Shown piece by piece: positions 36,740-56,119 of a stretch of 64,000 nucleotides of DNA. The notes under the pieces are model-generated. The model worked only from the letters and a program-made list of their open reading frames with translations. It did no database searches and had not been told where the DNA came from. Each line of letters opens with the position of its first letter. Positions within the stretch are counted from its first letter, which is position 1. The DNA lies in assembly GCA_036231405.1 (NCBI GenBank), contig JAZAHK010000028.1, forward strand, positions 575 through 64,574, given 5' to 3'. The translations under genes were made by a program, and so were the position numbers. Source of the stretch: Nitrospinota bacterium. GTDB lineage: Bacteria > UBA8248.

Positions 36740-36853
36740 TATTGATGAGTAGAAAATAAAAATGAGTTCATATGTTTCAATTATTTACAGAAATGACATC
36801 ATTGAGTGGTAGTGAACCTTAAAGCTAATAACACTGGACAAAAGGAGAAAATA

Positions 36854-37594
36854 ATGGATCGTGGCATCTGGGCAGTTTGGTACGACCTACCGAAAGAGGG
36901 CGAGGATGAATACCTTTCCTGGCTACATGAAGAGTACATCCCTCAAACTCTCAAACGTCCTGGATTCCTTTGGGCTGCACATTACAGATCCATTAGGAGC
37001 GAATACCATAATTCAAGCCCTGTACAGATGGCCAAAAGGTTCATGGATGAACCCGAACTGGGACGGGGAGGAGAATACTTCCTATTATTCGGGGCAGACA
37101 GCGCCCATTCATTTCTCGACCCTGCTCCCGAAGACCTACTGAACAGTTATGACGATCGTTCTCGCGAAATGATTGCCCGTCGACAAGGAGACCGAAGCGC
37201 CTATTTCACTGAGGTAGGTCGTGTAGATGGTCCAGAGATCGCGCGGCGCGGCCCTGGTCTTACTCCTGCTCCCATGGTCCAAATGGGCGCCTATCGGTCC
37301 GACGACGAAAATTACAACATCGATGTGGAAAGCTGGTACGTCCACCATCGCCTCGCCTCTTTGCCAGAGATGGAAGGATGCGTCGGGGCACGCAAACTCA
37401 TTTCCTTGGGAGGCTGGGCCCGACATGCTATCCTCTACGAATTCATTTCACCCGAAGCGCGGGAACACTACTATCAAATCCAAGAAGCTCCCGGTGGCGA
37501 CGCAAACCATCCTACCGGTGGTGTTGTCCGAAAACTCATCCATTCACCGGACTCACCGTCTTTAGGCGTGCGCATATGGCCAGAAGTGAAGTAG
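36854..37594 (+). CDS. hypothetical protein, GC-rich, apparent internal tandem duplication of an approximately 110-aa domain
   Basis: Start chosen at the ATG at 36854 behind an AGGAG RBS. The track ORF begins earlier, at 36806. The two halves share SW(L/Y)HEE/HH..P..pGf/eGc..A. GC reaches about 60% in the 3' half. Confidence 0.5.
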   Translation: MDRGIWAVWYDLPKEGEDEYLSWLHEEYIPQTLKRPGFLWAAHYRSIRSEYHNSSPVQMAKRFMDEPELGRGGEYFLLFGADSAHSFLDPAPEDLLNSYDDRSREMIARRQGDRSAYFTEVGRVDGPEIARRGPGLTPAPMVQMGAYRSDDENYNIDVESWYVHHRLASLPEMEGCVGARKLISLGGWARHAILYEFISPEAREHYYQIQEAPGGDANHPTGGVVRKLIHSPDSPSLGVRIWPEVK

Positions 37595-42752: not shown

Positions 42753-42806
42753 GTTATACTCAAACGATCGTGTGAAAGCTAGAGTTTAATGTATAGGAGG
42801 TTGTGT

Positions 42807-43673
42807 ATGTCCGAATATGATTTGAAAGGAAGAACGATAATTGTGACTGGTGCAGGTCGTGGTCTTGGTCGAGCTATGACCGAGGCACTTACAGAAGCAG
42901 GTGCGAATGTAGTTGCAGCAGCTCATATAACAGAAGATTTTCCAGAACTTCAAGAAGCATGTTCGAGTCATCCTGGTGACCTATATTGTATAATGGGAGA
43001 TATTCGAAAATCAGACGATTGCGACAGAATTATTTCCGCGACTTTAGAGGTATTTGGTGATGTCCATGGCCTTGTTAATAATGCAGGACTAACTTTTACC
43101 TATATTACTCCGGATGCGTACAGACGAGATGCTTTTAAACAGAGAAAAGAATATCCAAAATTTTATGAAGCAAGTGATGAGGTTATACAAAACGTGATCG
43201 ATACTAATTTCGTAGGTGCAGATAAGCTATGCCGACGAGTAGTTCCTCTAATGATTGATCAGGGTTGGGGTCGTATCGTCAACGTCACAACCATGTATCG
43301 AACAATGACACGTCAGGGAGCGTCGCCATACGGTCCTTCCAAGGCCGCACTTGAATGTGCAACTGAAATTTGGGCAAAAGATTTAGCAGAGACCGGAGTA
43401 ACTGTAAATGTTTTAAATCCTGGTTCTGGTGCCGCTACTCCAGGAATGGCAGAGGAAATGAAGGAATATAGTAAGAGTTTAGAGAATCCTATCCTTATCG
43501 AGGCTGAATTAATGAAAGCTCCGATTGTCTGGCTTATTTCGGACGCAACCAATGAAATTACAGGAATGCGTTATGATGCAAAGCCTTGGGACCCAAATAA
43601 ATCTGCAGCCGAAGAAGCAGAACGAATTGGGGCTAAGGCAGGCGTTCTCCTCTACTCCATGCCAGACTACTAA
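42807..43673 (+). CDS. SDR-family oxidoreductase
   Basis: TGAGRGLGRAM glycine-rich NAD(P) motif. Start set at the ATG at 42807 behind a TAGGAGG RBS. The track ORF starts at 42789. Confidence 0.85.
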   Translation: MSEYDLKGRTIIVTGAGRGLGRAMTEALTEAGANVVAAAHITEDFPELQEACSSHPGDLYCIMGDIRKSDDCDRIISATLEVFGDVHGLVNNAGLTFTYITPDAYRRDAFKQRKEYPKFYEASDEVIQNVIDTNFVGADKLCRRVVPLMIDQGWGRIVNVTTMYRTMTRQGASPYGPSKAALECATEIWAKDLAETGVTVNVLNPGSGAATPGMAEEMKEYSKSLENPILIEAELMKAPIVWLISDATNEITGMRYDAKPWDPNKSAAEEAERIGAKAGVLLYSMPDY

Positions 43674-43684
43674 GTGGGTTATCT
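43466..43684. repeat. 219-bp direct repeat, copy 1 (native 3' end of the SDR gene)
   Basis: About 93% identical to 44982..45200. Runs from atatagtaagagtttagagaatcctatc through ctaagtgggttatct. Confidence 0.9.
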
Positions 43685-43783
43685 TCATTTCTTACCCACT
43701 TTATGTTACGATCACTGAATGAGCCGACTGCTGCCGTTATTTTGGTACGCATGTGTCGCTGCATTTATGCTAAAGGTATTTTT

Positions 43784-44959
43784 ATGTTTACAGCAACTAA
43801 AGATCGATCACTGCTTACTACCACTACGGGTGCCTTGCCACGTCCTACCTGGTATACTGAAAACCTTCGGGGGCAGCCATTATCCATAGGATTTTCACAG
43901 AAAGGTTATCGCGAACAACATTTTGATTGTCTCTCTTGTCATATTAGTGCGCAGAAGAGAGCAGGGATTGATATCTTTGTTGATGGTGATACAAGGCTCG
44001 ATGATGACGTCGCTGGTCGGAGCTGGGTGAGTTATGCCTATGAGCGGATAAAAGGTTTTGGTGTACCGGATATTTCTGTACAGCCCTATGCTGCAATGGC
44101 TGACAGTGGTCCTGGTGACTTCATATGGGAAGTTATAGAGACACGACTAACTCCTCATGTAGAGGATAAGATTGGTGAGACTTCGCTCCAACTCGATCGG
44201 GCATGGAAGGCGATTGCACCCATGACCAGTCGGCCCGTTAAGATTGGCTCAATCTCCGCCCAGGTTATTGCCCATATGTGCGTTAACGATCACTACACTA
44301 GCCGCTTTGACCTGCTAATGGCTTTATCGGAGGCATTGAATCATGAGTATCACGCTCTCGCCGATGCTGGAGCGCCAATTGTTCAAATAGAAGAACCCGC
44401 AATTCATCAATCGATGTACGCTCTCAACCCTGAAATTACTGCTGAACAGTATGTAGAAGCTTTTAACGTGGAAGTTGCTGGTTTGCGCGAAAAATGTGAA
44501 GTCTGGTGCCATGCTTGTTGGGGTAGCCCTGGTGCACAAAAAATGTTTCCTTCGGGAGCTTCCTACAAGGAGGCTCTACCATATTTTGATAAGCTCGACA
44601 TCGATGTCTTGACAGTCGAAGGTGCTACAAACGGCGGTATTGATGTCCCTCTATACGGTTCTATGATCTCCAAGGACAAAAAGATAGCGGTTGGAGTTAT
44701 CAGTCACCGCACAATGCAGATAGAAAGACCTGAAGAGGTTGCCAGTTTAATTCGTCTATGTCTCCAACATATTGAACCTGAGCGCTTGGTCCTCTCGAGT
44801 GATTGTGGATTTGGTCGTCAGTCAATGAGCCGTATGCATGCCTTCTATAAAATGGTGTCCCTGGTCCGGGGTGCAAATATTGTGCGTCGTGAGCTCGGAC
44901 TTGAGGAAGTTGCCGTTCCGGCAGCAGATCCCAACTTTTCTATGGTACCCATTCGTTAG
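43784..44959 (+). CDS. cobalamin-independent methionine synthase (MetE) C-terminal-domain-like / UroD-fold methyltransferase family protein
   Basis: Zn-ligand-like motifs VWCHACWG and LSSDCGFG as in Meth_synt_2. GC about 50%. Start set at the ATG at 43784. The track ORF starts at 43703. Confidence 0.65.
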   Translation: MFTATKDRSLLTTTTGALPRPTWYTENLRGQPLSIGFSQKGYREQHFDCLSCHISAQKRAGIDIFVDGDTRLDDDVAGRSWVSYAYERIKGFGVPDISVQPYAAMADSGPGDFIWEVIETRLTPHVEDKIGETSLQLDRAWKAIAPMTSRPVKIGSISAQVIAHMCVNDHYTSRFDLLMALSEALNHEYHALADAGAPIVQIEEPAIHQSMYALNPEITAEQYVEAFNVEVAGLREKCEVWCHACWGSPGAQKMFPSGASYKEALPYFDKLDIDVLTVEGATNGGIDVPLYGSMISKDKKIAVGVISHRTMQIERPEEVASLIRLCLQHIEPERLVLSSDCGFGRQSMSRMHAFYKMVSLVRGANIVRRELGLEEVAVPAADPNFSMVPIR

Positions 44960-44981
44960 TAATTGGTGTAAGAAAAAAATA

Positions 44982-45189
44982 ATATAGTAAGAGTTTAGAG
45001 AATCCTATCTTTCCCGAGCCAGAACTAATGAAGGCCCCAATTGTCTGGCTGATTTCCGATGCAACCAATGAAATTACAGGAATGCGTTATGATGCAAAGC
45101 CTTGGGACCCAAATAAACCTGCAGCCGAAGAAGCAGAACGAATTGGGGCTAAGGCAGGCGTTCTGCTCTACTCCATGCCAGACTACTAA
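44982..45189 (+). pseudogene. orphan 3' fragment of SDR gene (duplicate copy; last ~68 codons, ...KSLENPIFPEPELMKAPIVWLISDATNEITGMRYDAKPWDPNKPAAEEAERIGAKAGVLLYSMPDY*)
   Basis: Direct-repeat copy 2 (44982..45200) of the SDR 3' end. It has no 5' part or start codon. Confidence 0.85.
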
Positions 45190-45241
45190 GTGGGTTATCT
45201 GAAACATAGCTAACTACAAAATATGGTTGAATGATATGAAT

Positions 45242-49291: not shown

Positions 49292-49918
49292 TCAAATGAG
49301 ACTTGCCATTTTTTGAACATACGCCTGTAAGTCTTCTGGTTTCGCGCTTGCTCTTCCCCCTCGAGCTTGTACTTCTTCTCCTTCAAGTTCGATTTGTAAA
49401 GAATCCATGAAACGATTCATTAAACCACGGAAACAAGCCACCATGGTGATTTCTACAATTTCTGCCGAATTAAAGTGTTTGGAAAGTTTTTCATAGGTTT
49501 CGTCGTCATATCTTGCGGTGTTCCAAGTGACTAGTTCTGCCCATTTGATGACAGATTTCTCACGGTCATCAAAGAGAGGACTTTCTAGATAATTGTCCCC
49601 ACTTAAAGTGTCAAGTTGTTCTTCCGTCCAGCCCGCAGTTCGCCCAACTAGGCGATTGTGTTTTGTTCAATACTGACACTCGTTAAGGGTAGATACTTTG
49701 ATCATAGCTAATGCTCGTATTTTGCCATCGAGTTTGCATCCTAGGTCATCTTTTTGAAGCACAGTTTGTAATGGAAGAAGAAATTTTAAAATTGCGGGGG
49801 AATGGGCAAATGTGCGCATCGAATTGGCAACCCTTCCATTAATATTATCTGCAGTTTCGAATGCGTTTCGTATATCAGGGTTATCTGCGTTATCTTGGAT
49901 AAAAGGTAATCTTGCCAT
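49292..49918 (-). CDS. AhpD/carboxymuconolactone-decarboxylase-family protein with in-frame TGA at the catalytic Cys position. Candidate selenoprotein (CxxU).
   Basis: The track ORF 49667..49918 ends ...LNECQY at a TGA (49667..49669). Manual translation continues in frame for 124 more codons, TKHNRLVGRTAGWTEEQLDTL...DREKSVIKWAELVTWNTA...VQKMASLI*, to the stop at 49292..49294. Conservation continues after the TGA and matches the paralog at 52206..52862. Confidence 0.7.
49640..49655 (-). promoter_or_regulatory. hairpin 11 nt downstream of the in-frame UGA. Candidate bacterial SECIS element.
   Basis: The mRNA reads UGA-ACAAAACACAA-UCGCC UAGUUG GGCGA. It has a 5-bp GC-rich stem, a 6-nt loop containing GU, and the canonical 11-nt spacing. 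Confidence 0.4.
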
Positions 49919-50044
49919 AAATATTCTCCTCTTTGATTTGTGAGAAATTAGGGTAGCTTTGATATACTAATTCATCAAGAGAAACTATTGTGAAATATTA
50001 AAAAGATAAGGATGTAGAATAATTATAGAAAAAGGTTTTTTGAA

Positions 50045-50449
50045 ATGGGATATGTAGATAAGACTTTGGCTGAAAACGAAAAAATAGTTTTCCGTTTGAA
50101 ATATCATTGGTCCTATACTCTCACGGCATTCTTATGGCTTCTTTTTTTTGGTTTGTTAATAATAGGAGTCATTCAATTTCTAAGAATGATGATTAATAAA
50201 TGGACAACAGAAAGGGTTCTTACTGCATTCAGGCTTATTAAAAAGACGGGTTGGATAAGCAGGAAAATCGAAAAAATTCGTGTAGCTAGAATGGAAGAAA
50301 TTAATCTTAGTCAATCATTCTGGGGGCGTATTTTTGGAGTGGAAAAAGTGAAAGTTACTGGAGCAGGTCGTGGTACTGTTGATTTGGTTTGGTTATCCGA
50401 TCCTATTGGATTTCAAAAAACTCTAAACAACGCTAAATTCAAAAGCTAA
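50045..50449 (+). CDS. bacterial PH-domain (bPH_2/YdbS-like) membrane protein
   Basis: 134 aa. Two TM segments followed by a PH-like region. Confidence 0.5.
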   Translation: MGYVDKTLAENEKIVFRLKYHWSYTLTAFLWLLFFGLLIIGVIQFLRMMINKWTTERVLTAFRLIKKTGWISRKIEKIRVARMEEINLSQSFWGRIFGVEKVKVTGAGRGTVDLVWLSDPIGFQKTLNNAKFKS

Positions 50450-50482
50450 AAAAACAAAACCTTTATTTTCAAAGGAGATTTA

Positions 50483-51271
50483 ATGGATTGTCGAATGGAT
50501 GGTCGTAATGCTCTAATAACGGGAAGCAGCCGGGGCCTAGGGCGTGCGATGGCTTTGAACTTTGCTTCTTCTGGTGCGAATGTTGTGATTTGTGGAAGGC
50601 GAAGTGATGTTCTCAATAAAACACGAAAAGAAATTGAAAACATTTCTAATAACAAGGTCGTTGCTATTACTGCCGATGTTAGTACGGCAGATGGTGTGAA
50701 TTCTTTAATTAAAAGTGCTCAAGAAAAATTGGGTGATATAGATATTTTGGTTAATAACGCGGGCATTTCAAAACACGGGCCTTTCATAGAAATTACAGAT
50801 GAAGAGTGGACACAGGATTTTGAACTTAAGGTTTTTGGTGCGATTCGAAGTTGTCGATTACTTTTCCCAGGAATGGTAGAGAGGAAATGGGGAAGGATCA
50901 TCAACGTACTCAACCTTGGTGCAAAGGCTCCTCCTGCACTAGGTGCTCCAACAGCTGTTTCGCGTGCAGCAGGTATGGCGATTACAAAGGTGTTATCCAA
51001 GGAAGGTGCTCCGTATAATGTTCTTGTGAATGCATTGTTGGTTGGTCGTATTGAAAGCGATCAGTGGCTTAATCGATGGGAAAAGTCGGATCAATCGATT
51101 TCATATGATGAATATTTAGAGGACATGGCGAATCAACTGAATTTACCTATGGGAAGAGTGGGTACTGCAGAAGAATTTGGAAATTTAGCGAGTTTTTTAT
51201 GTTCGGAAGCAGGTTCCTACATTAGTGGAGTAGCGATTAATGTCGATGGCGGTACAAGTTCAGTCGTTTAG
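50483..51271 (+). CDS. SDR-family oxidoreductase
   Basis: ITGSSRGLGRAMA glycine-rich motif. NNAG. Confidence 0.85.
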   Translation: MDCRMDGRNALITGSSRGLGRAMALNFASSGANVVICGRRSDVLNKTRKEIENISNNKVVAITADVSTADGVNSLIKSAQEKLGDIDILVNNAGISKHGPFIEITDEEWTQDFELKVFGAIRSCRLLFPGMVERKWGRIINVLNLGAKAPPALGAPTAVSRAAGMAITKVLSKEGAPYNVLVNALLVGRIESDQWLNRWEKSDQSISYDEYLEDMANQLNLPMGRVGTAEEFGNLASFLCSEAGSYISGVAINVDGGTSSVV

Positions 51272-51390
51272 TACTAATTTATAGTCTAATTGATAAGGTT
51301 TATAGATTTTCAATAAAAATACATTGAACTGAAACAAAGAAATAGAACAATAAATCCTCATGAAAAAAACGAAGTAAGAGGGAGAAAAAT

Positions 51391-52146
51391 ATGGGTGAAT
51401 TAGAAAGAAAGGTAGCTCTTGTAACTGGTGCATCTCGAGGAATCGGACGAGCGGTTTCCATTCGTTTAGCTTCTGAGGGTGCTTCGATATATTTGGCAGC
51501 TGATGGTACCGAAGAGGAATTGTCAGAAACGGAAAGAGAATGTCATAAGGCAGGCGCAGTTAATGTTGCTTGGGGCATTCACGACATATCGAGTTCTGGA
51601 GAAGCAGAACTCATGGTTTTAGATGCTCATAAACGTATGGGTCGAATTGATATTCTCGTTAATAATGCAGGGATCAGGGTTCGGAAAAGTTTTGGTGATT
51701 TTTCTCAAGATGAATTTGATCGAGTTGTAGCAGTGAATCTCCGCGCACCTTTCATGGCAAGTCAGGCAGTAGTTTCCATTATGAAATCTCAGGGCGGTGG
51801 ACATATTATTCATATGGCTAGTCAACTGGGTATTGTAGCTTCTCGTTATGGTTCAGTTTATAGCCTTACTAAGGCAGGTCTGATCCAACTTACTCGTTCG
51901 ATGGCTCTTGAATTAGGGAAGGAAGGTATATCGGTAAATGCTATTTGCCCTGGTCCTATTTCGACTGATGGATTTATGGCAAATCGAAATCCTGGGGAAC
52001 TTGAACAACGTGCGCGTGATGTCCCTATAGGACGTTTTGGTACGGTAGAAGAGGTTGCCGCTATGGTTTCTTTTCTCGTTTCTAAAGATGCGGCTTTCAT
52101 TTTAGGTCATGCTTTGGTTATGGATGGAGGATATGTTGTTCACTAG
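51391..52146 (+). CDS. SDR-family oxidoreductase
   Basis: VTGASRGIGRAV. NNAG. YSLTKAGL catalytic YxxxK. Confidence 0.85.
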   Translation: MGELERKVALVTGASRGIGRAVSIRLASEGASIYLAADGTEEELSETERECHKAGAVNVAWGIHDISSSGEAELMVLDAHKRMGRIDILVNNAGIRVRKSFGDFSQDEFDRVVAVNLRAPFMASQAVVSIMKSQGGGHIIHMASQLGIVASRYGSVYSLTKAGLIQLTRSMALELGKEGISVNAICPGPISTDGFMANRNPGELEQRARDVPIGRFGTVEEVAAMVSFLVSKDAAFILGHALVMDGGYVVH

Positions 52147-52205
52147 TAAATTATAAATAGGAGAAAAGGATGTTCTTGATATAGATTAATAAAAGGAGAT
52201 ATGGA

Positions 52206-52862
52206 ATGGCATTAATTGAACTCATTTTACCAGAGAACGCCCAAGGGGAACAGAAGAAAACTTATGAGATTTTAGAGCATATTCGTGCAAAACATGTATT
52301 TTCGCAGATGGCAAGTGTAAATTCTCCATTCTTGTCTCGGATTATTTCTGCATTAGTTTATTCCTTGCGTGAAGGTATGGGGACTATCCTTCCTTCTAAG
52401 ATCAAACAAATGGCGATAATTAAGACTAGTCAAATTAATACTTGTGACTATTGACTTAATCATAATACTGCTCTCGGAAGAGCAACTGGGATAACTGATG
52501 AAGAGGCAGAAGTTGTTTTTTCTGAAGAATATTTAGATTCCGAAATTCTTACTGATCGAGAGAAGGCAGCAGTTCTTTGGGCGGAACATGTCACCCGAAA
52601 CACAGCAAAACTTCGTCCAGAAATACAAGAAGAGGTAAAGAAACATTTTGCAGATCAGGAACTATTTGAACTTACTTTTATAATTAGTTACTTTAATTTT
52701 AGAAATCGCCTACATGATTCATTACTATTGCCTTTAGATGGAGAAGACACTTTGCAAGACAATGTTGGTTTCCTTAAATTTGACCCTGGTAGTATGAAGA
52801 ACTATCTTCAGGCTGTAGTTGATAATTGGCCAGATGAATTTCCAAAACCTAATGTGAACTGA
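52206..52862 (+). CDS. AhpD/carboxymuconolactone-decarboxylase-family protein with in-frame TGA at the catalytic Cys position. Candidate selenoprotein (CxxU). Paralog of 49292..49918.
   Basis: The track ORF 52206..52454 ends ...INTCDY at TGA 52452..52454. The frame continues LNHNTALGRATGITDEEAEVV...DREKAAVLWAEHVTRNTA...KPNVN* to the stop at 52860..52862. It aligns column for column with the other paralog across the TGA. Confidence 0.7.
52469..52484 (+). promoter_or_regulatory. hairpin 14 nt downstream of in-frame UGA. Candidate SECIS element.
   Basis: tgctct cgga agagca, a 6-bp stem with a 4-nt loop. Confidence 0.3.
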
Positions 52863-52870
52863 GGAATTTC

Positions 52871-53929
52871 ATGTTTGATAATATTGCCGTTTTTGGTACT
52901 GGAGCCATAGGGAGTAGTACAGCTGCGGATCTTACTGACGCGGGGTATAACGTGACGATCGTGGATCAGTGGCCCGCACATGTTGAGGCAATGAAAAAAG
53001 GTGGTCTGCACATCCAAATGCCAGATCTTGATTTAAAGGTTAAGGTTAAAGCATTGCACATTTGTGAGCTTGCTTCGGAAAAGCCAGAATTTGATCTTAT
53101 TATTCTGGCAGTTAAATCTTTTGATACCCGTTGGATGGCTGAACTAATGTTCCCCTATTTGAGTGAGAATGGAGTGCTAGTTGGTTTGCAAAATAGTATG
53201 AATGAAGTAGAGATAACCTGCGATATCATTGGAAGGGAAAGAATAGTCGGAGCCTGTATCGAACTTTCTGGTGAGTTATTTACTCCTGGTTTTGTTCAGA
53301 GAAATACGCCAAGAACGGGCACTTGGTTTGCGGTTGGGGAACTTAATGGGAGTATTACCCCCCGACTTCAAGAAATTCAAAAAATCCTTAGTCATGTTGC
53401 AAAAGTAGAAATATCTGAAAATATCCTTGGTACAAAATGGACGAAGCTAATAATCAACTCTATGAGTATGGGTCCTTGGGGTTTGATTGGTTTATTAAAT
53501 CGTGAGGTGATGCAGTTGCCTGGCATGTTTGATTTGGCAGTTGATCTCGGAATGGAAACAGTTGCAGTGGGGACTGCGCTGGGCCTAAATGTAGAACCGG
53601 TGTTTGGATTAAGGGAAGACGATTTTACTGGAGACGAGGATAAAATGTTACTGAATGCTTTGAAAACGATGACTGGTCATACAGGTCCAAGAGCTCGTAC
53701 TGCACCGATTCACGATCATTTAAAGGACCGAAAAAATGAAATAGAGTTTATTAATGGACTCGTTTCACGTAAGGGGAAAGAGCTCGGAGTTCCTACTCCA
53801 TTTAATGATGTGATAAGTGAGCTAGCAAGGGAAATTAATCAAGGCAATCTAATTATGGATCCTTCAAACTATAATCTCATTAAGAAAAAATTGTCAGATA
53901 ACGGACTGAATGTCGACTATATGAAATGA
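52871..53929 (+). CDS. 2-dehydropantoate 2-reductase (ApbA/PanE) family oxidoreductase
   Basis: IAVFGTGAIGSSTAADL N-terminal Rossmann. ApbA_C-like C-terminus. Confidence 0.75.
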   Translation: MFDNIAVFGTGAIGSSTAADLTDAGYNVTIVDQWPAHVEAMKKGGLHIQMPDLDLKVKVKALHICELASEKPEFDLIILAVKSFDTRWMAELMFPYLSENGVLVGLQNSMNEVEITCDIIGRERIVGACIELSGELFTPGFVQRNTPRTGTWFAVGELNGSITPRLQEIQKILSHVAKVEISENILGTKWTKLIINSMSMGPWGLIGLLNREVMQLPGMFDLAVDLGMETVAVGTALGLNVEPVFGLREDDFTGDEDKMLLNALKTMTGHTGPRARTAPIHDHLKDRKNEIEFINGLVSRKGKELGVPTPFNDVISELAREINQGNLIMDPSNYNLIKKKLSDNGLNVDYMK

Positions 53930-53966: not shown

Positions 53967-54845
53967 ATGAGTAGAATAGCAATACTCGGAGTTGGTGCTA
54001 TAGGGAGTATCTATGGAGCAAGATTATATGAACTTGGAAAGCACGAAGTCGTTCTATGTGTGAGAAAAACATTTAAAAAATTTAAGATTGAAACTCCTTC
54101 TCGAGTTATAGAGACTCCGGTGCATTGTGTAACACTCCCCGAAACAGTAAGTTCGGTTGATTGGATCATTCTTGCTGTAAAGTGTCATCAAGTAGAATCT
54201 GTAGAGCCTTGGTTTAAGAATCTTGTTGGACCGAAGACGATTGTTGCCGTGTTGCAAAATGGAGTAGAGCATCTTGAGAATACAGAGCCTTTTGTTTGCG
54301 GTGCGGAGATTCTACCTGTCATTGTCCAATGTCCTGCAGATAGGCTTTCTCCAGGTCATGTTGTGCAAAACGCAATGTCGAGATTGGTTGTGCCTGATAA
54401 TGAATCAGGCCAAGTACTCTCGTCGCTTTATGAAGGAAGTGATATTGATGTAGAACTTACTTCTGATTTCACAACTGCAATGTGGAAAAAACTGTGTGGA
54501 AATATTGCCAGAAATCCTGCTACTGCTTTAACCAATCGAGGAAGAGGAGTTGTAAAAGATTCTGAGGTGTCAAAAGTTTGTCAAACTCTGGTAGGTGAAT
54601 GTGCAGAGGTTGGAAGAGCAGAAGGAGCCATTCTTTCTGATGATTTTCTTGAAAATGTGGTTTCTAACCAATCAGGTATCGAAGAAAATGCAACTACTTC
54701 CATGCTTGTTGATGTTCGTGCGGGTTTACCTCTTGAGTCTGAAGGAATGACAGGTGCTGTCATAAGGGCTGGTGTTAAACATGGTATCCCAACACCAACA
54801 ACTTGTGTCATACATTCTTTGCTGTCTGCTATCAATAGAGAATAA
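53967..54845 (+). CDS. ketopantoate reductase (ApbA/PanE) family oxidoreductase, second paralog
   Basis: IAILGVGAIGSIYGARL. Tandem to the first KPR-like gene. Confidence 0.7.
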   Translation: MSRIAILGVGAIGSIYGARLYELGKHEVVLCVRKTFKKFKIETPSRVIETPVHCVTLPETVSSVDWIILAVKCHQVESVEPWFKNLVGPKTIVAVLQNGVEHLENTEPFVCGAEILPVIVQCPADRLSPGHVVQNAMSRLVVPDNESGQVLSSLYEGSDIDVELTSDFTTAMWKKLCGNIARNPATALTNRGRGVVKDSEVSKVCQTLVGECAEVGRAEGAILSDDFLENVVSNQSGIEENATTSMLVDVRAGLPLESEGMTGAVIRAGVKHGIPTPTTCVIHSLLSAINRE

Positions 54846-54937: not shown

Positions 54938-56119
54938 ATGAATATGAGCGTTCAAAAAGTGAAACCGTCAGAATCTAGGAACGTTCGAAGAATTGGGCAT
55001 AGTGAAATTGATGGTTGGGGTGATGCTTTTCAGGTCATCGTACGAGAGAATAAATGGTGTTACGTTGCTGCATCTGGTATGGAAGGGCACGAAGGGACAA
55101 GCGTATTAAACGTTGAAGATCCTGCAAATCCCGTAGTAGTGAATCAAATACAAGCCCCTGAGGGGACACATTCGCATAAAGTTTTATTTTTAGATGACGT
55201 TATGATAGTTAATGCTGAACAAATTCGTGGTTGGGAAGGAGAAGGTTTTGTTGGTGGGATACGTTTATTTGATGCTTCAGTTCCTGCAAATCCAAAATTT
55301 ATCAAAGATTTTCCAATGTATGGTAGAGGAACTCATAGACCTGTCCTTGATGAGGAAAACCGTCTTTTATATTGTTCTTGTGGTGCAGAAGGATACCGCG
55401 GAAATATTCTTTGGATTCTAGATATTGATGATCCTGCTAATCCTAAAGTCGTCAGCCAGTTTGCCTTAGAGGGTCAAAGGGAAGATATTCCATTACCTCC
55501 GGGAGTGCATACCCTCCAAGTACATCAGGCTAATCGACGAGGAGATTTTCTATATCTTGGTTGTGCTGATTGGGGAATCGTTGTTCTTGATGTGAAGGAT
55601 ACTTCTAACCCAAAGCAGATTGCTCATTTCAATCCAACACCACCGTATCCAGGGCATTGTCATACGGTTTTTCCTGTTCCGGAGACTGATTATCTTGTAG
55701 TTACTCATGAATCTACATCGTTTGATGTATCTGAAGCTCCAGGATTTATTTTTATCTATGATGCACAATTACCGAGTAATCCAGTGCCTATTTCTACTTG
55801 GATGCCTTATCCAGTTGATCATAGACTGTATCCTAAGGAAGGAGATTGGACGACGCGTGGAGGTCGTTATGGAGCGCACAATATTTGGGAATTTATGGGT
55901 CCCAAAGATTTCGTGTATACGACATGGTTTAACGGTGGTCTTCGTATTGTGGATATCTCCGATCCTTTCAGACCAGAGGAAGTAGGATATTATATTCCAG
56001 AAGGTCGTAATGGAAAACCTACACCACAAAGTAATGATGTTTTTGTTGATGGTCGAAATCTAATATATGTTACCGATCGATGGGGTTGCGGTTTGGATAT
56101 TCTCGAATATACAGGTTAG
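54938..56119 (+). CDS. LVIVD-repeat beta-propeller protein
   Basis: Repeated hydrophobic-rich motifs (YVAASG, IMIVNAE, GIVVLDVKD, LRIVDISDP, LIYVTDRWGCGLDILEY) are characteristic of LVIVD repeats. Confidence 0.6.
   Translation: MNMSVQKVKPSESRNVRRIGHSEIDGWGDAFQVIVRENKWCYVAASGMEGHEGTSVLNVEDPANPVVVNQIQAPEGTHSHKVLFLDDVMIVNAEQIRGWEGEGFVGGIRLFDASVPANPKFIKDFPMYGRGTHRPVLDEENRLLYCSCGAEGYRGNILWILDIDDPANPKVVSQFALEGQREDIPLPPGVHTLQVHQANRRGDFLYLGCADWGIVVLDVKDTSNPKQIAHFNPTPPYPGHCHTVFPVPETDYLVVTHESTSFDVSEAPGFIFIYDAQLPSNPVPISTWMPYPVDHRLYPKEGDWTTRGGRYGAHNIWEFMGPKDFVYTTWFNGGLRIVDISDPFRPEEVGYYIPEGRNGKPTPQSNDVFVDGRNLIYVTDRWGCGLDILEYTG

Follow-up and report, generated by a model that had tools for sequence, protein, structure and literature searches.

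Two predicted AhpD-like selenoprotein genes and their reductase neighbours in a Nitrospinota bacterium

The two AhpD-like genes and their known relatives

We analysed a stretch of 64,000 nucleotides (nt) from a Nitrospinota bacterium (GenBank assembly GCA_036231405.1, contig JAZAHK010000028.1, positions 575 to 64,574 of the forward strand), referred to below as the window, which carries two genes for AhpD-like proteins of the CMD fold, each with one in-frame TGA codon. A first-pass annotation of the same DNA had placed these genes, here called A and B, on opposite strands in divergent orientation, with coordinates that proved correct to the base, and had read them as candidate genes for selenocysteine (Sec)-containing proteins. 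Genes were placed with a map of the open reading frames (ORFs) and their translations, and the labels L001 to L134 denote related loci and contigs retrieved by genome and metagenome scans. The GC content of the window is about 39%. The two genes, with their Sec codons and hairpins of the bacterial Sec insertion sequence (bSECIS) type, are as follows.

49292..49918, minus strand: gene A, predicted AhpD-like (CMD-fold) selenoprotein, 208 codons, one of them an in-frame TGA (translation, Pfam CMD)
49667..49669, minus strand: predicted Sec codon (UGA) of gene A (translation, homologue alignment)
49640..49655, minus strand: bSECIS-type hairpin of gene A, UCGCCU-AGUU-GGGCGA, beginning 11 nt downstream of the UGA (fold)
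52206..52862, plus strand: gene B, predicted AhpD-like (CMD-fold) selenoprotein, 218 codons with one TGA (translation, Pfam CMD, TIGR00778)
52452..52454, plus strand: predicted Sec codon (UGA) of gene B (translation, homologue alignment)
52469..52484, plus strand: bSECIS-type hairpin of gene B, UGCUCU-CGGA-AGAGCA, beginning 14 nt downstream of the UGA (fold)

The redox motif reads C81-Q-Y-U84-T-K-H in A (context N-E-C-Q-Y-U-T-K-H) and C80-D-Y-U83-L-N-H in B (context N-T-C-D-Y-U-L-N-H), and the C-terminal tail of B, DNWPDxFPxPN, is conserved. Both proteins score above the Pfam CMD cut-off of 23 bits (PF02627; 26.9 bits for A and 31.5 for B), and B also passes the TIGR00778 ahpD_dom threshold (28.7 against 27.8). 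Since A and B share merely 33% identity, they are old paralogues and not the product of a recent duplication.

Among solved structures both proteins match best to Pseudomonas aeruginosa PA0269 and related CMD chains, with E = 8e-10 (A) and 5e-13 (B), and these matches already settle the fold. In PA0269 and the 'peroxidase-related' CMD structures (PDB 2IJC, 2O4D, 7XW1, 2OYO, 2PFX and 2PRR) a CxxC aligns with the CxxU of A and B; these are Cys proteins of 145-197 residues, whereas A and B have 208 and 218 residues, with extra N- and C-terminal segments. The conserved His lies three residues after U in A and B (CxxUxxH), but four residues after the second Cys in the PA0269 structure. A weak match (E = 3e-5 to 5e-5) links both proteins to the tetrabromopyrrole debrominase Bmp8 (PDB 6OHI and 6OHJ), which shares the CMD fold and a redox Cys motif and is a thiol-dependent reductive dehalogenase, so that the fold allows chemistry other than that of peroxides. 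The debromination route of Bmp8 has reportedly been likened to that of the Sec-dependent deiodinases. The bmp genes are not present here, and a dehalogenase role for A or B would be speculative by sequence.

Selenoproteins of this kind are known from marine metagenomes. Two families with CxxU, AhpD-like 1 (COG2128) and AhpD-like 2 (PF02627), are on record from the Sargasso Sea and Global Ocean Sampling (GOS) metagenomes (PMC1088965, PMC2398784); among the prokaryotic selenoprotein families of the GOS data, AhpD-like 1 ranks fourth in abundance (PMC2398784). With 48-54 selenoproteins, metagenome-assembled genomes (MAGs) that bear the label Nitrospinota or Nitrospinaceae rank among the richest in bacteria (PMC13326102). 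Like the two AhpD-like families, A and B have a CMD/AhpD domain, Sec in place of the second Cys of CxxC, homologues of the Cys form, marine abundance and a downstream hairpin; they differ in nothing essential, being two subfamilies of which B has the DNWPDxFPxPN tail. Against curated NCBIfam (seleno)protein families both score below the cut-offs: 68 and 50 bits for A and B against 310 for NF053654 (YciW-related), 22 and 25 bits against 175 for NF041238 (AhpD_rel_CFYUT), and 46 and 41 bits against 81.8 for TIGR01926 (peroxidase-related). By these profiles A and B are related to the three families yet not members of them and, because they fall below these cut-offs, are further, distinct subfamilies of the known AhpD-like selenoprotein kind.

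Selenocysteine codons and downstream hairpins

Homologues of A were collected with its C-terminus as the query and one genome per GTDB species, which returned 26 loci. Three of these are in 'uncultured Nitrospinaceae' MAGs (84-91% identity) and the remainder in MAGs of Betaproteobacteria/Burkholderiales type (about 70-76%). The family A alignment was built on the C-terminal part, as an alignment of fragmentary homologues gave no usable conserved block. TGA occupies the aligned codon in 26/26 homologues, with the frame intact on both sides, and the N-terminal fragments of the family stop at ...NEC[RKQ]Y.

For family B, a metagenome scan with B yielded 80 loci, in which 95 AhpD-like genes were examined; 93 have TGA and 2 have TGC. 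In the protein collection many homologues of B are either split into an 83-residue N-terminal and a ~124-residue C-terminal ORF or given with W in place of the TGA. The full-length homologues with Cys read CxYC there (CGYC, CSYC, CDYC and CEYC), and in the alignment to PDB sequences the query residue at the TGA site, for which Cys had been entered, falls on the second Cys of the CxxC of the PA0269/CMD chain. The frame is kept on both sides of the TGA across more than 110 distinct sequences. When the whole window was scanned for ORFs with a single in-frame TGA and coding sequence on both sides, A and B were the sole credible cases; both of the two read-through candidates in 64 kb are members of one family, lying 2.3 kb apart, a pairing that is more than chance would produce.

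The synonymous-codon entropy of family A reaches its gene-wide minimum over hairpin codons 88-93 (0.32 bits, against a mean of 1.28). Here Arg-CGC, Gly-GGG and Arg-CGA are unchanged in 22/22 sequences, from genomes of 36-67% GC, and the loop alone varies. In other members of family B the corresponding codons also fold into a hairpin, which differs in sequence and has GGUC as its loop. Furthermore, the mean 30-nt folding-energy profile of 109 distinct TGA genes has its global minimum 12 nt downstream of the UGA, at -9.4 kcal/mol compared to -4.74 +/- 1.44 kcal/mol. The folding z-score of the gene B hairpin as a single sequence is merely -1.0; such scores do not discriminate for short hairpins, and synonymous-site entropy together with the position-resolved mean energy profile was decisive.

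Like the bSECIS of Escherichia coli fdhF, the hairpins of A and B lie inside the coding sequence directly 3' of the UGA, and those of the families have G/U-containing apical loops (AGUU, GGUC and CGGA) 16-20 nt from it. They differ in their short stems (about 6 bp) and in having no Rfam match, and SelB binding is putative here. The Rfam scan of the window matched nothing, the hairpins included. Two predicted 'terminators' turned out to be only the reverse complements of the SECIS hairpins and were set aside, and the promoter scan found promoter-like sites in the window to be rarer than in shuffled sequences. The family A hairpin offers a clean example of a bSECIS whose nucleotides are frozen across phyla of very different GC.

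These data bear on the alternative that the in-frame TGAs are real stops, in pseudogenes or split genes, or that an alternative genetic code is in use. Gene callers do split the homologues or read TGA as W, and neither tRNA-Sec nor sel genes turned up in the window: the tRNA scan of the 64 kb was empty, and selA, selB and selD domains were not found among the 50 window ORFs scanned. Yet the frame conservation across more than 110 distinct sequences, the Cys at the same site in homologues and the hairpin under synonymous constraint all oppose this alternative. Other genes of the window, moreover, use TGA as their ordinary stop, which also opposes this alternative and means that the standard genetic code applies. 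We give this alternative practically no credence and regard both A and B, as far as sequence can tell, as genuine AhpD-like selenoprotein genes. The first-pass reading of the two as candidate selenoproteins is thereby borne out by the conservation of codon and frame, the Cys homologues and the hairpins. Each split ORF deserves annotation as a full-length AhpD-like selenoprotein, and it is mainly in this respect that the result matters.

In the mechanism that we propose, A and B would be anciently diverged AhpD-like paralogues, each with a CxxU redox motif, whose UGA would be decoded as Sec with the aid of the short hairpin 11-14 nt downstream acting as a bSECIS. Such decoding would need selA, selB, selC and selD, which would necessarily lie outside the window.

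The reductase genes around A and B

Three genes lie between A and B and two follow B, as listed here.

50045..50449, plus strand: small membrane protein with a bacterial PH domain, bPH_2 (Pfam PF03703, 39.9 bits against a cut-off of 22), below bPH
50483..51271, plus strand: SDR1, atypical protein of the short-chain dehydrogenase (SDR) family (Pfam)
51391..52146, plus strand: SDR2, canonical SDR with YxxxK present (Pfam)
52871..53929, plus strand: KPR1, protein of the ketopantoate reductase (KPR) family (Pfam ApbA and ApbA_C)
53967..54845, plus strand: KPR2, 2-dehydropantoate 2-reductase, PanE (NCBIfam NF005091 equivalog)

The bPH-SDR-SDR block between the selenoprotein genes and the two ketopantoate-reductase-like genes after the second of them were correctly described in the first-pass annotation, and the Pfam and NCBIfam matches agree with the domains that it had given. 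From bPH through KPR2 all genes are co-directional, with intergenic gaps of 33, 119, 59, 8 and 37 nt.

The close relatives comprise 12 contigs (L009-L011, L045-L048 and L130-L134) from three populations, with 79-90% nucleotide identity to the window. Where the contig is long enough, the gene order is MOSC, RlmD and A (minus strand), followed divergently by SDR1, B and KPR1. The genes for bPH and SDR2 are present in 0/12 of these contigs: in the alignment bPH is a clean indel of ~390 nt in the A-SDR1 intergenic region, and SDR2 a clean indel of ~880 nt that extends from the SDR1 stop to the ribosome-binding site of B. By the sequences of A and B the L045/L046 type is closest to the window, the L047/L130 type being the outgroup; because the outgroup also lacks bPH and SDR2, both are most parsimoniously gains in the window lineage. 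No flanking repeats were found around either gene. Exact-sequence look-ups of SDR2 and bPH found no record in the protein collection searched, which means that this collection has no sample of the population from which the window comes.

The B-KPR1 spacer measures 8 nt in the window and 38, ~200 or ~513 nt in the relatives. The ~513-nt form holds an intact ORF for a His-rich, signal-peptide-like protein of 154 residues (L010:2231-2695, minus strand, and L046), and the ~200-nt form (L009:1850-2030 and L045) is a decayed remnant of this ORF, which is wholly absent from the window. Because relatives carry the ORF or its remnant at this place, the tight 8-nt junction of the window is derived. KPR2 is not syntenic in the relatives, in which a membrane protein of 213 residues follows KPR1.

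Compared to the 86-kb relative L130, the window has several extra gene blocks, and the region is one of rapid gene turnover. A 220-nt direct repeat (43465-43684 and 44981-45200, 94% identical), which corresponds to the 3' end of the SDR gene at 42789..43673, brackets a Meth_synt_2-like gene (43703..44959), and the whole block from 43.7 to 47.3 kb (Meth_synt_2-like gene, amidase and polysaccharide deacetylase) is not present in L011 and L130. This repeat-bracketed block has the appearance of an insertion or duplication scar. Next to A, the ~100 nt upstream of the gene (49919-50020) are conserved among the relatives almost like coding sequence and contain three TTGAT half-sites, two direct and one inverted; judged from this pattern, the region may be a shared promoter/operator of the divergent genes. 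Downstream of KPR2, the plus-strand gene at 54938-56119, which is not syntenic in the relatives, encodes an LVIVD-repeat protein with a sub-threshold match to PF05694 (56-kDa selenium-binding protein; 19.6 bits against a cut-off of 34) that probably reflects shared repeat/propeller architecture only.

Among the neighbouring enzymes, SDR1, the one gene present between A and B throughout the clade, has an intact TGxxxGxG cofactor motif (TGSSRGLG), but the Ser-Tyr-Lys triad positions are Asn, Ala and Arg in 11/11 orthologues found, as judged from alignments to SDR2 and to PDB 3AI1 and 6JH7. The nearest solved relative, 6JH7, likewise lacks the Tyr and the Lys. SDR2 has the triad (S...YSLTK) as well as the cofactor motif and is a classical SDR, whereas SDR1 may be a non-catalytic or unconventional one. 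Recent duplication of SDR1/SDR2 and of KPR1/KPR2 was considered and is ruled out by identities of 26% and 25%, respectively. KPR2 scores above the PanE equivalog NF005091 (280 bits against a cut-off of 252) and is PanE, probably with a housekeeping role and outside the conserved gene set. KPR1 is borderline on the broad subfamily TIGR00745 (143 against 141.35 bits) and passes no equivalog.

Beyond the clade we compared 89 non-redundant distant loci, taking as near any gene within 1.5 kb of an AhpD-like gene. An SDR or KPR gene is near in merely 3/89 loci, and a conserved module of Sec-AhpD with SDR/KPR genes was not found across phylogenetically diverse genomes. For SDR, KPR, zinc-dependent alcohol dehydrogenase and aldo-keto reductase genes together, the pooled density near the AhpD-like gene (0.35 per 10 kb) is not clearly higher than the pooled density farther away (0.18 per 10 kb). 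Homologues of B with 40-59% identity occur in at least five unrelated annotated contexts, all without an SDR or KPR gene, and KPR1 orthologues with 82% identity (in genomes of 54-58% GC) and 61% identity have none of A, B and SDR1 nearby. The distribution of these genes is patchy, with the KPR1 orthologues of 82% identity in L125-L128 (54-58% GC) and A orthologues of 70-76% identity in Betaproteobacteria-type MAGs of 55-67% GC, which suggests horizontal transfer.

The recurrent partner of B homologues (47-59% identity) is instead a protein of ~238 residues with a weak DUF4286 match, encoded directly down- or upstream. This DUF4286-like gene adjoins B-family genes in L001-L008, L049-L057 and L117/L123 and appears to be the most widely conserved neighbour of the B family; its homologue in the window (36851-37594, plus strand, 246 residues, 44% identity) lies 14.6 kb from B.

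The first-pass annotation had suggested that the block might as a whole serve to detoxify peroxides or electrophiles, as a dedicated module in which the SDRs and KPRs could feed electrons from NAD(P)H to the Sec-AhpDs, and had named lack of conservation of the neighbourhood as one result that would refute it. On that comparison the proposal mostly fails: the arrangement of A divergent from SDR1-B-KPR1 is kept only in a narrow clade, and bPH, SDR2 and KPR2 are never conserved. The proposal can point to the co-directional and closely spaced genes, to redox-type domains throughout, and to the company that SDR1, B and KPR1 keep in the close clade. It conflicts with the status of bPH and SDR2 as recent insertions absent in all close relatives, with the non-syntenic PanE, with the lack of enrichment in the 89 distant loci and with the unrelated contexts of KPR1 orthologues of 82% identity; SDR adjacency, moreover, comes cheap when four SDR genes fall within a span of 20 kb, as they do here. 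The chemistry is equally unfavourable. SDR and KPR enzymes transfer hydride to carbonyls and are not, to our knowledge, reductants of disulfide or selenenylsulfide bonds, while AhpD is recycled by lipoamide/Lpd-type thiol systems. Because the gene order is not conserved, SDR1 lacks the triad and the chemistry is that of carbonyls, the supply of reducing equivalents by SDR and KPR enzymes is left without comparative or chemical support, and we consider a dedicated module of the whole block to be very unlikely.

The likely mechanistic template is the AhpC/AhpD/Lpd/DlaT relay of Mycobacterium tuberculosis, with its thiol-disulfide exchange and recycling by a thiol system, which has in common with A and B an AhpD-type fold and a redox-active CxxC-type motif. 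It differs in that ahpC, lpd and dlaT are not adjacent to A or B, and in the Sec that stands for the second Cys. AhpC together with Lpd/DlaT, adjacent or co-encoded as in the mycobacterial type, was not found in the window. Domains of peroxiredoxin, thioredoxin, thioredoxin reductase and lipoamide dehydrogenase occurred in 0/50 scanned window ORFs, and the lack of a flavin disulfide reductase, a thioredoxin and a peroxiredoxin among the ORFs scanned is a further point against a self-contained detoxifying block.

Taken as a whole, the locus is best explained, and in our judgement probably, by two selenoprotein paralogues of known family in a block that is not a dedicated AhpD-plus-reductase electron-transfer module. 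The chromosome would be that of a marine, Nitrospinaceae-like bacterium, with A and B placed head to head in a flexible region rich in genes for oxidoreductases and hydrolases. SDR1-B-KPR1 probably forms a short transcription unit divergent from A, with bPH and SDR2 as recent insertions and KPR2 as an unrelated PanE. From fold and motif, A and B would be thiol/selenol oxidoreductases of peroxidase or disulfide-reductase type, cycling through a Cys-Sec selenenylsulfide that would be re-reduced by general thioredoxin- or lipoamide-type systems encoded elsewhere.

Several observations weigh against this explanation. The core of A and SDR1-B-KPR1 is kept in four genotypes that are 10-20% apart in nucleotides, despite indels at every junction, and its persistence is compatible with a functional or regulatory link specific to the clade. 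Within 1.5 kb of AhpD-like genes, NAD(P)H-dependent carbonyl reductases reach about twice their density farther away (8 matches against ~4 expected), half of the 8 being one type of aldo-keto reductase. KPR1-like genes also occur near B homologues, adjacent in L079/L081 (39% identity) and 4.8 kb off in L099 (55%). In addition, tRNA and domain scans of the 64-kb window brought up neither the Sec machinery nor the physiological reductant, and the functions given for the A and B subfamilies are predictions from fold and motif.

Part of this evidence would suit a different role for the core, as a clade-specific small-molecule pathway with a metabolic rather than an electron-donor link, in which the substrate of the AhpD-like proteins would be an organic hydroperoxide, an electrophile or an organohalide, while KPR1, possibly with SDR1, would process the carbonyl or hydroxy product. 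Besides the synteny that outlasts nucleotide divergence and repeated junction indels and the KPR1-like genes of L079/L081 and L099, it could draw on the well-conserved first ~100 nt of the divergent intergenic region beside A, on an aldo-keto reductase gene directly 3' of a B homologue in L067, the same type lying within 1.5 kb in four distant loci, and on the CMD-fold enzymes that include a thiol-dependent debrominase (Bmp8, PDB 6OHI, E ~ 3e-5). However, the conservation is confined to a narrow clade, for which shared descent suffices, the B-KPR1 spacers range from 8 to 513 nt and at times hold another ORF, the enrichment is statistically weak, and SDR1 may be catalytically inactive. We regard such a pathway as improbable and retain the explanation by two selenoprotein paralogues without a dedicated reductase module. 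The locus carries a caution in this respect: redox modules read from gene order can mislead in genomes that are crowded with oxidoreductase genes and quick to gain and lose genes.

Paralogue pairs and clustered selenoprotein genes

The AhpD-like genes can also be viewed as pairs of an A-type (CxYU-T..H) and a B-type (CxYU-[LFI]..H) paralogue, such that the pair itself would be the conserved unit, a hetero-oligomer or redox relay, and the genes between would be interchangeable. In the window clade SDR1 lies between A and B. The pairs of L097, L098 and L112 are divergent with an HxlR regulator gene between, and that of L117/L123 is divergent with a DUF4286-like gene between; the pairs of L073 and L087 are in tandem, and L021, L031 and L032 also carry A orthologues. 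Such adjacency is far commoner than the ~0.5% per locus that would be expected by rough estimate from ~10 paralogues placed at random among ~4,000 genes. Set against this, 104/130 loci have a single AhpD-like gene, tandem duplication or joint horizontal transfer trivially yields paralogue clusters, and an interaction of the two proteins would be conjectural. CMD proteins are, moreover, typically homo-oligomeric. We hold the pair as the conserved unit to be unlikely. The fuller version, by which the pair recurring in at least five lineages is a real conserved unit acting jointly and the Nitrospinaceae-like clade recruited a triad-less SDR and a KPR-like enzyme to it, seems more doubtful still. 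Should the pair reading prove correct, it would open a first route to the function of one of the most abundant, yet uncharacterised, families of marine selenoproteins. The preferred reading remains that of two paralogues of known family.

The head-to-head arrangement has a second, independent case with different cargo in L097, L098 and L112, where a divergent A-like/B-like Sec-AhpD pair (L098:6607-8486) is ~600 nt apart with a gene of the HxlR family (PF01638) between.

The clustering of selenoprotein genes extends to another family. GRDB/PrdB-like genes (PF07355) with an in-frame TGA in U-P-x-C often adjoin A-like genes, and lie next to or near them in L019 (5083-6327), L098 (5367-6656, minus strand), L021, L026, L031 and L033, in betaproteobacterial and marine loci alike. 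Because GRDB/PrdB-like genes adjoin A-like genes in both types of locus, selenoprotein genes cluster there. Neighbouring selenoprotein genes have already been seen in GOS reads (PMC2398784), and this clustering is the one mildly novel thread.

Finally, L021:2754-4091, L031:4860-6200 and L032:1698-3032 each encode, apparently in one ORF, a B-like Sec-AhpD domain followed by a second CMD domain, in which both redox residues are replaced (H-x-A-x-Y-L for C-x-Y-U). This predicted fusion would be a two-domain selenoprotein variant.

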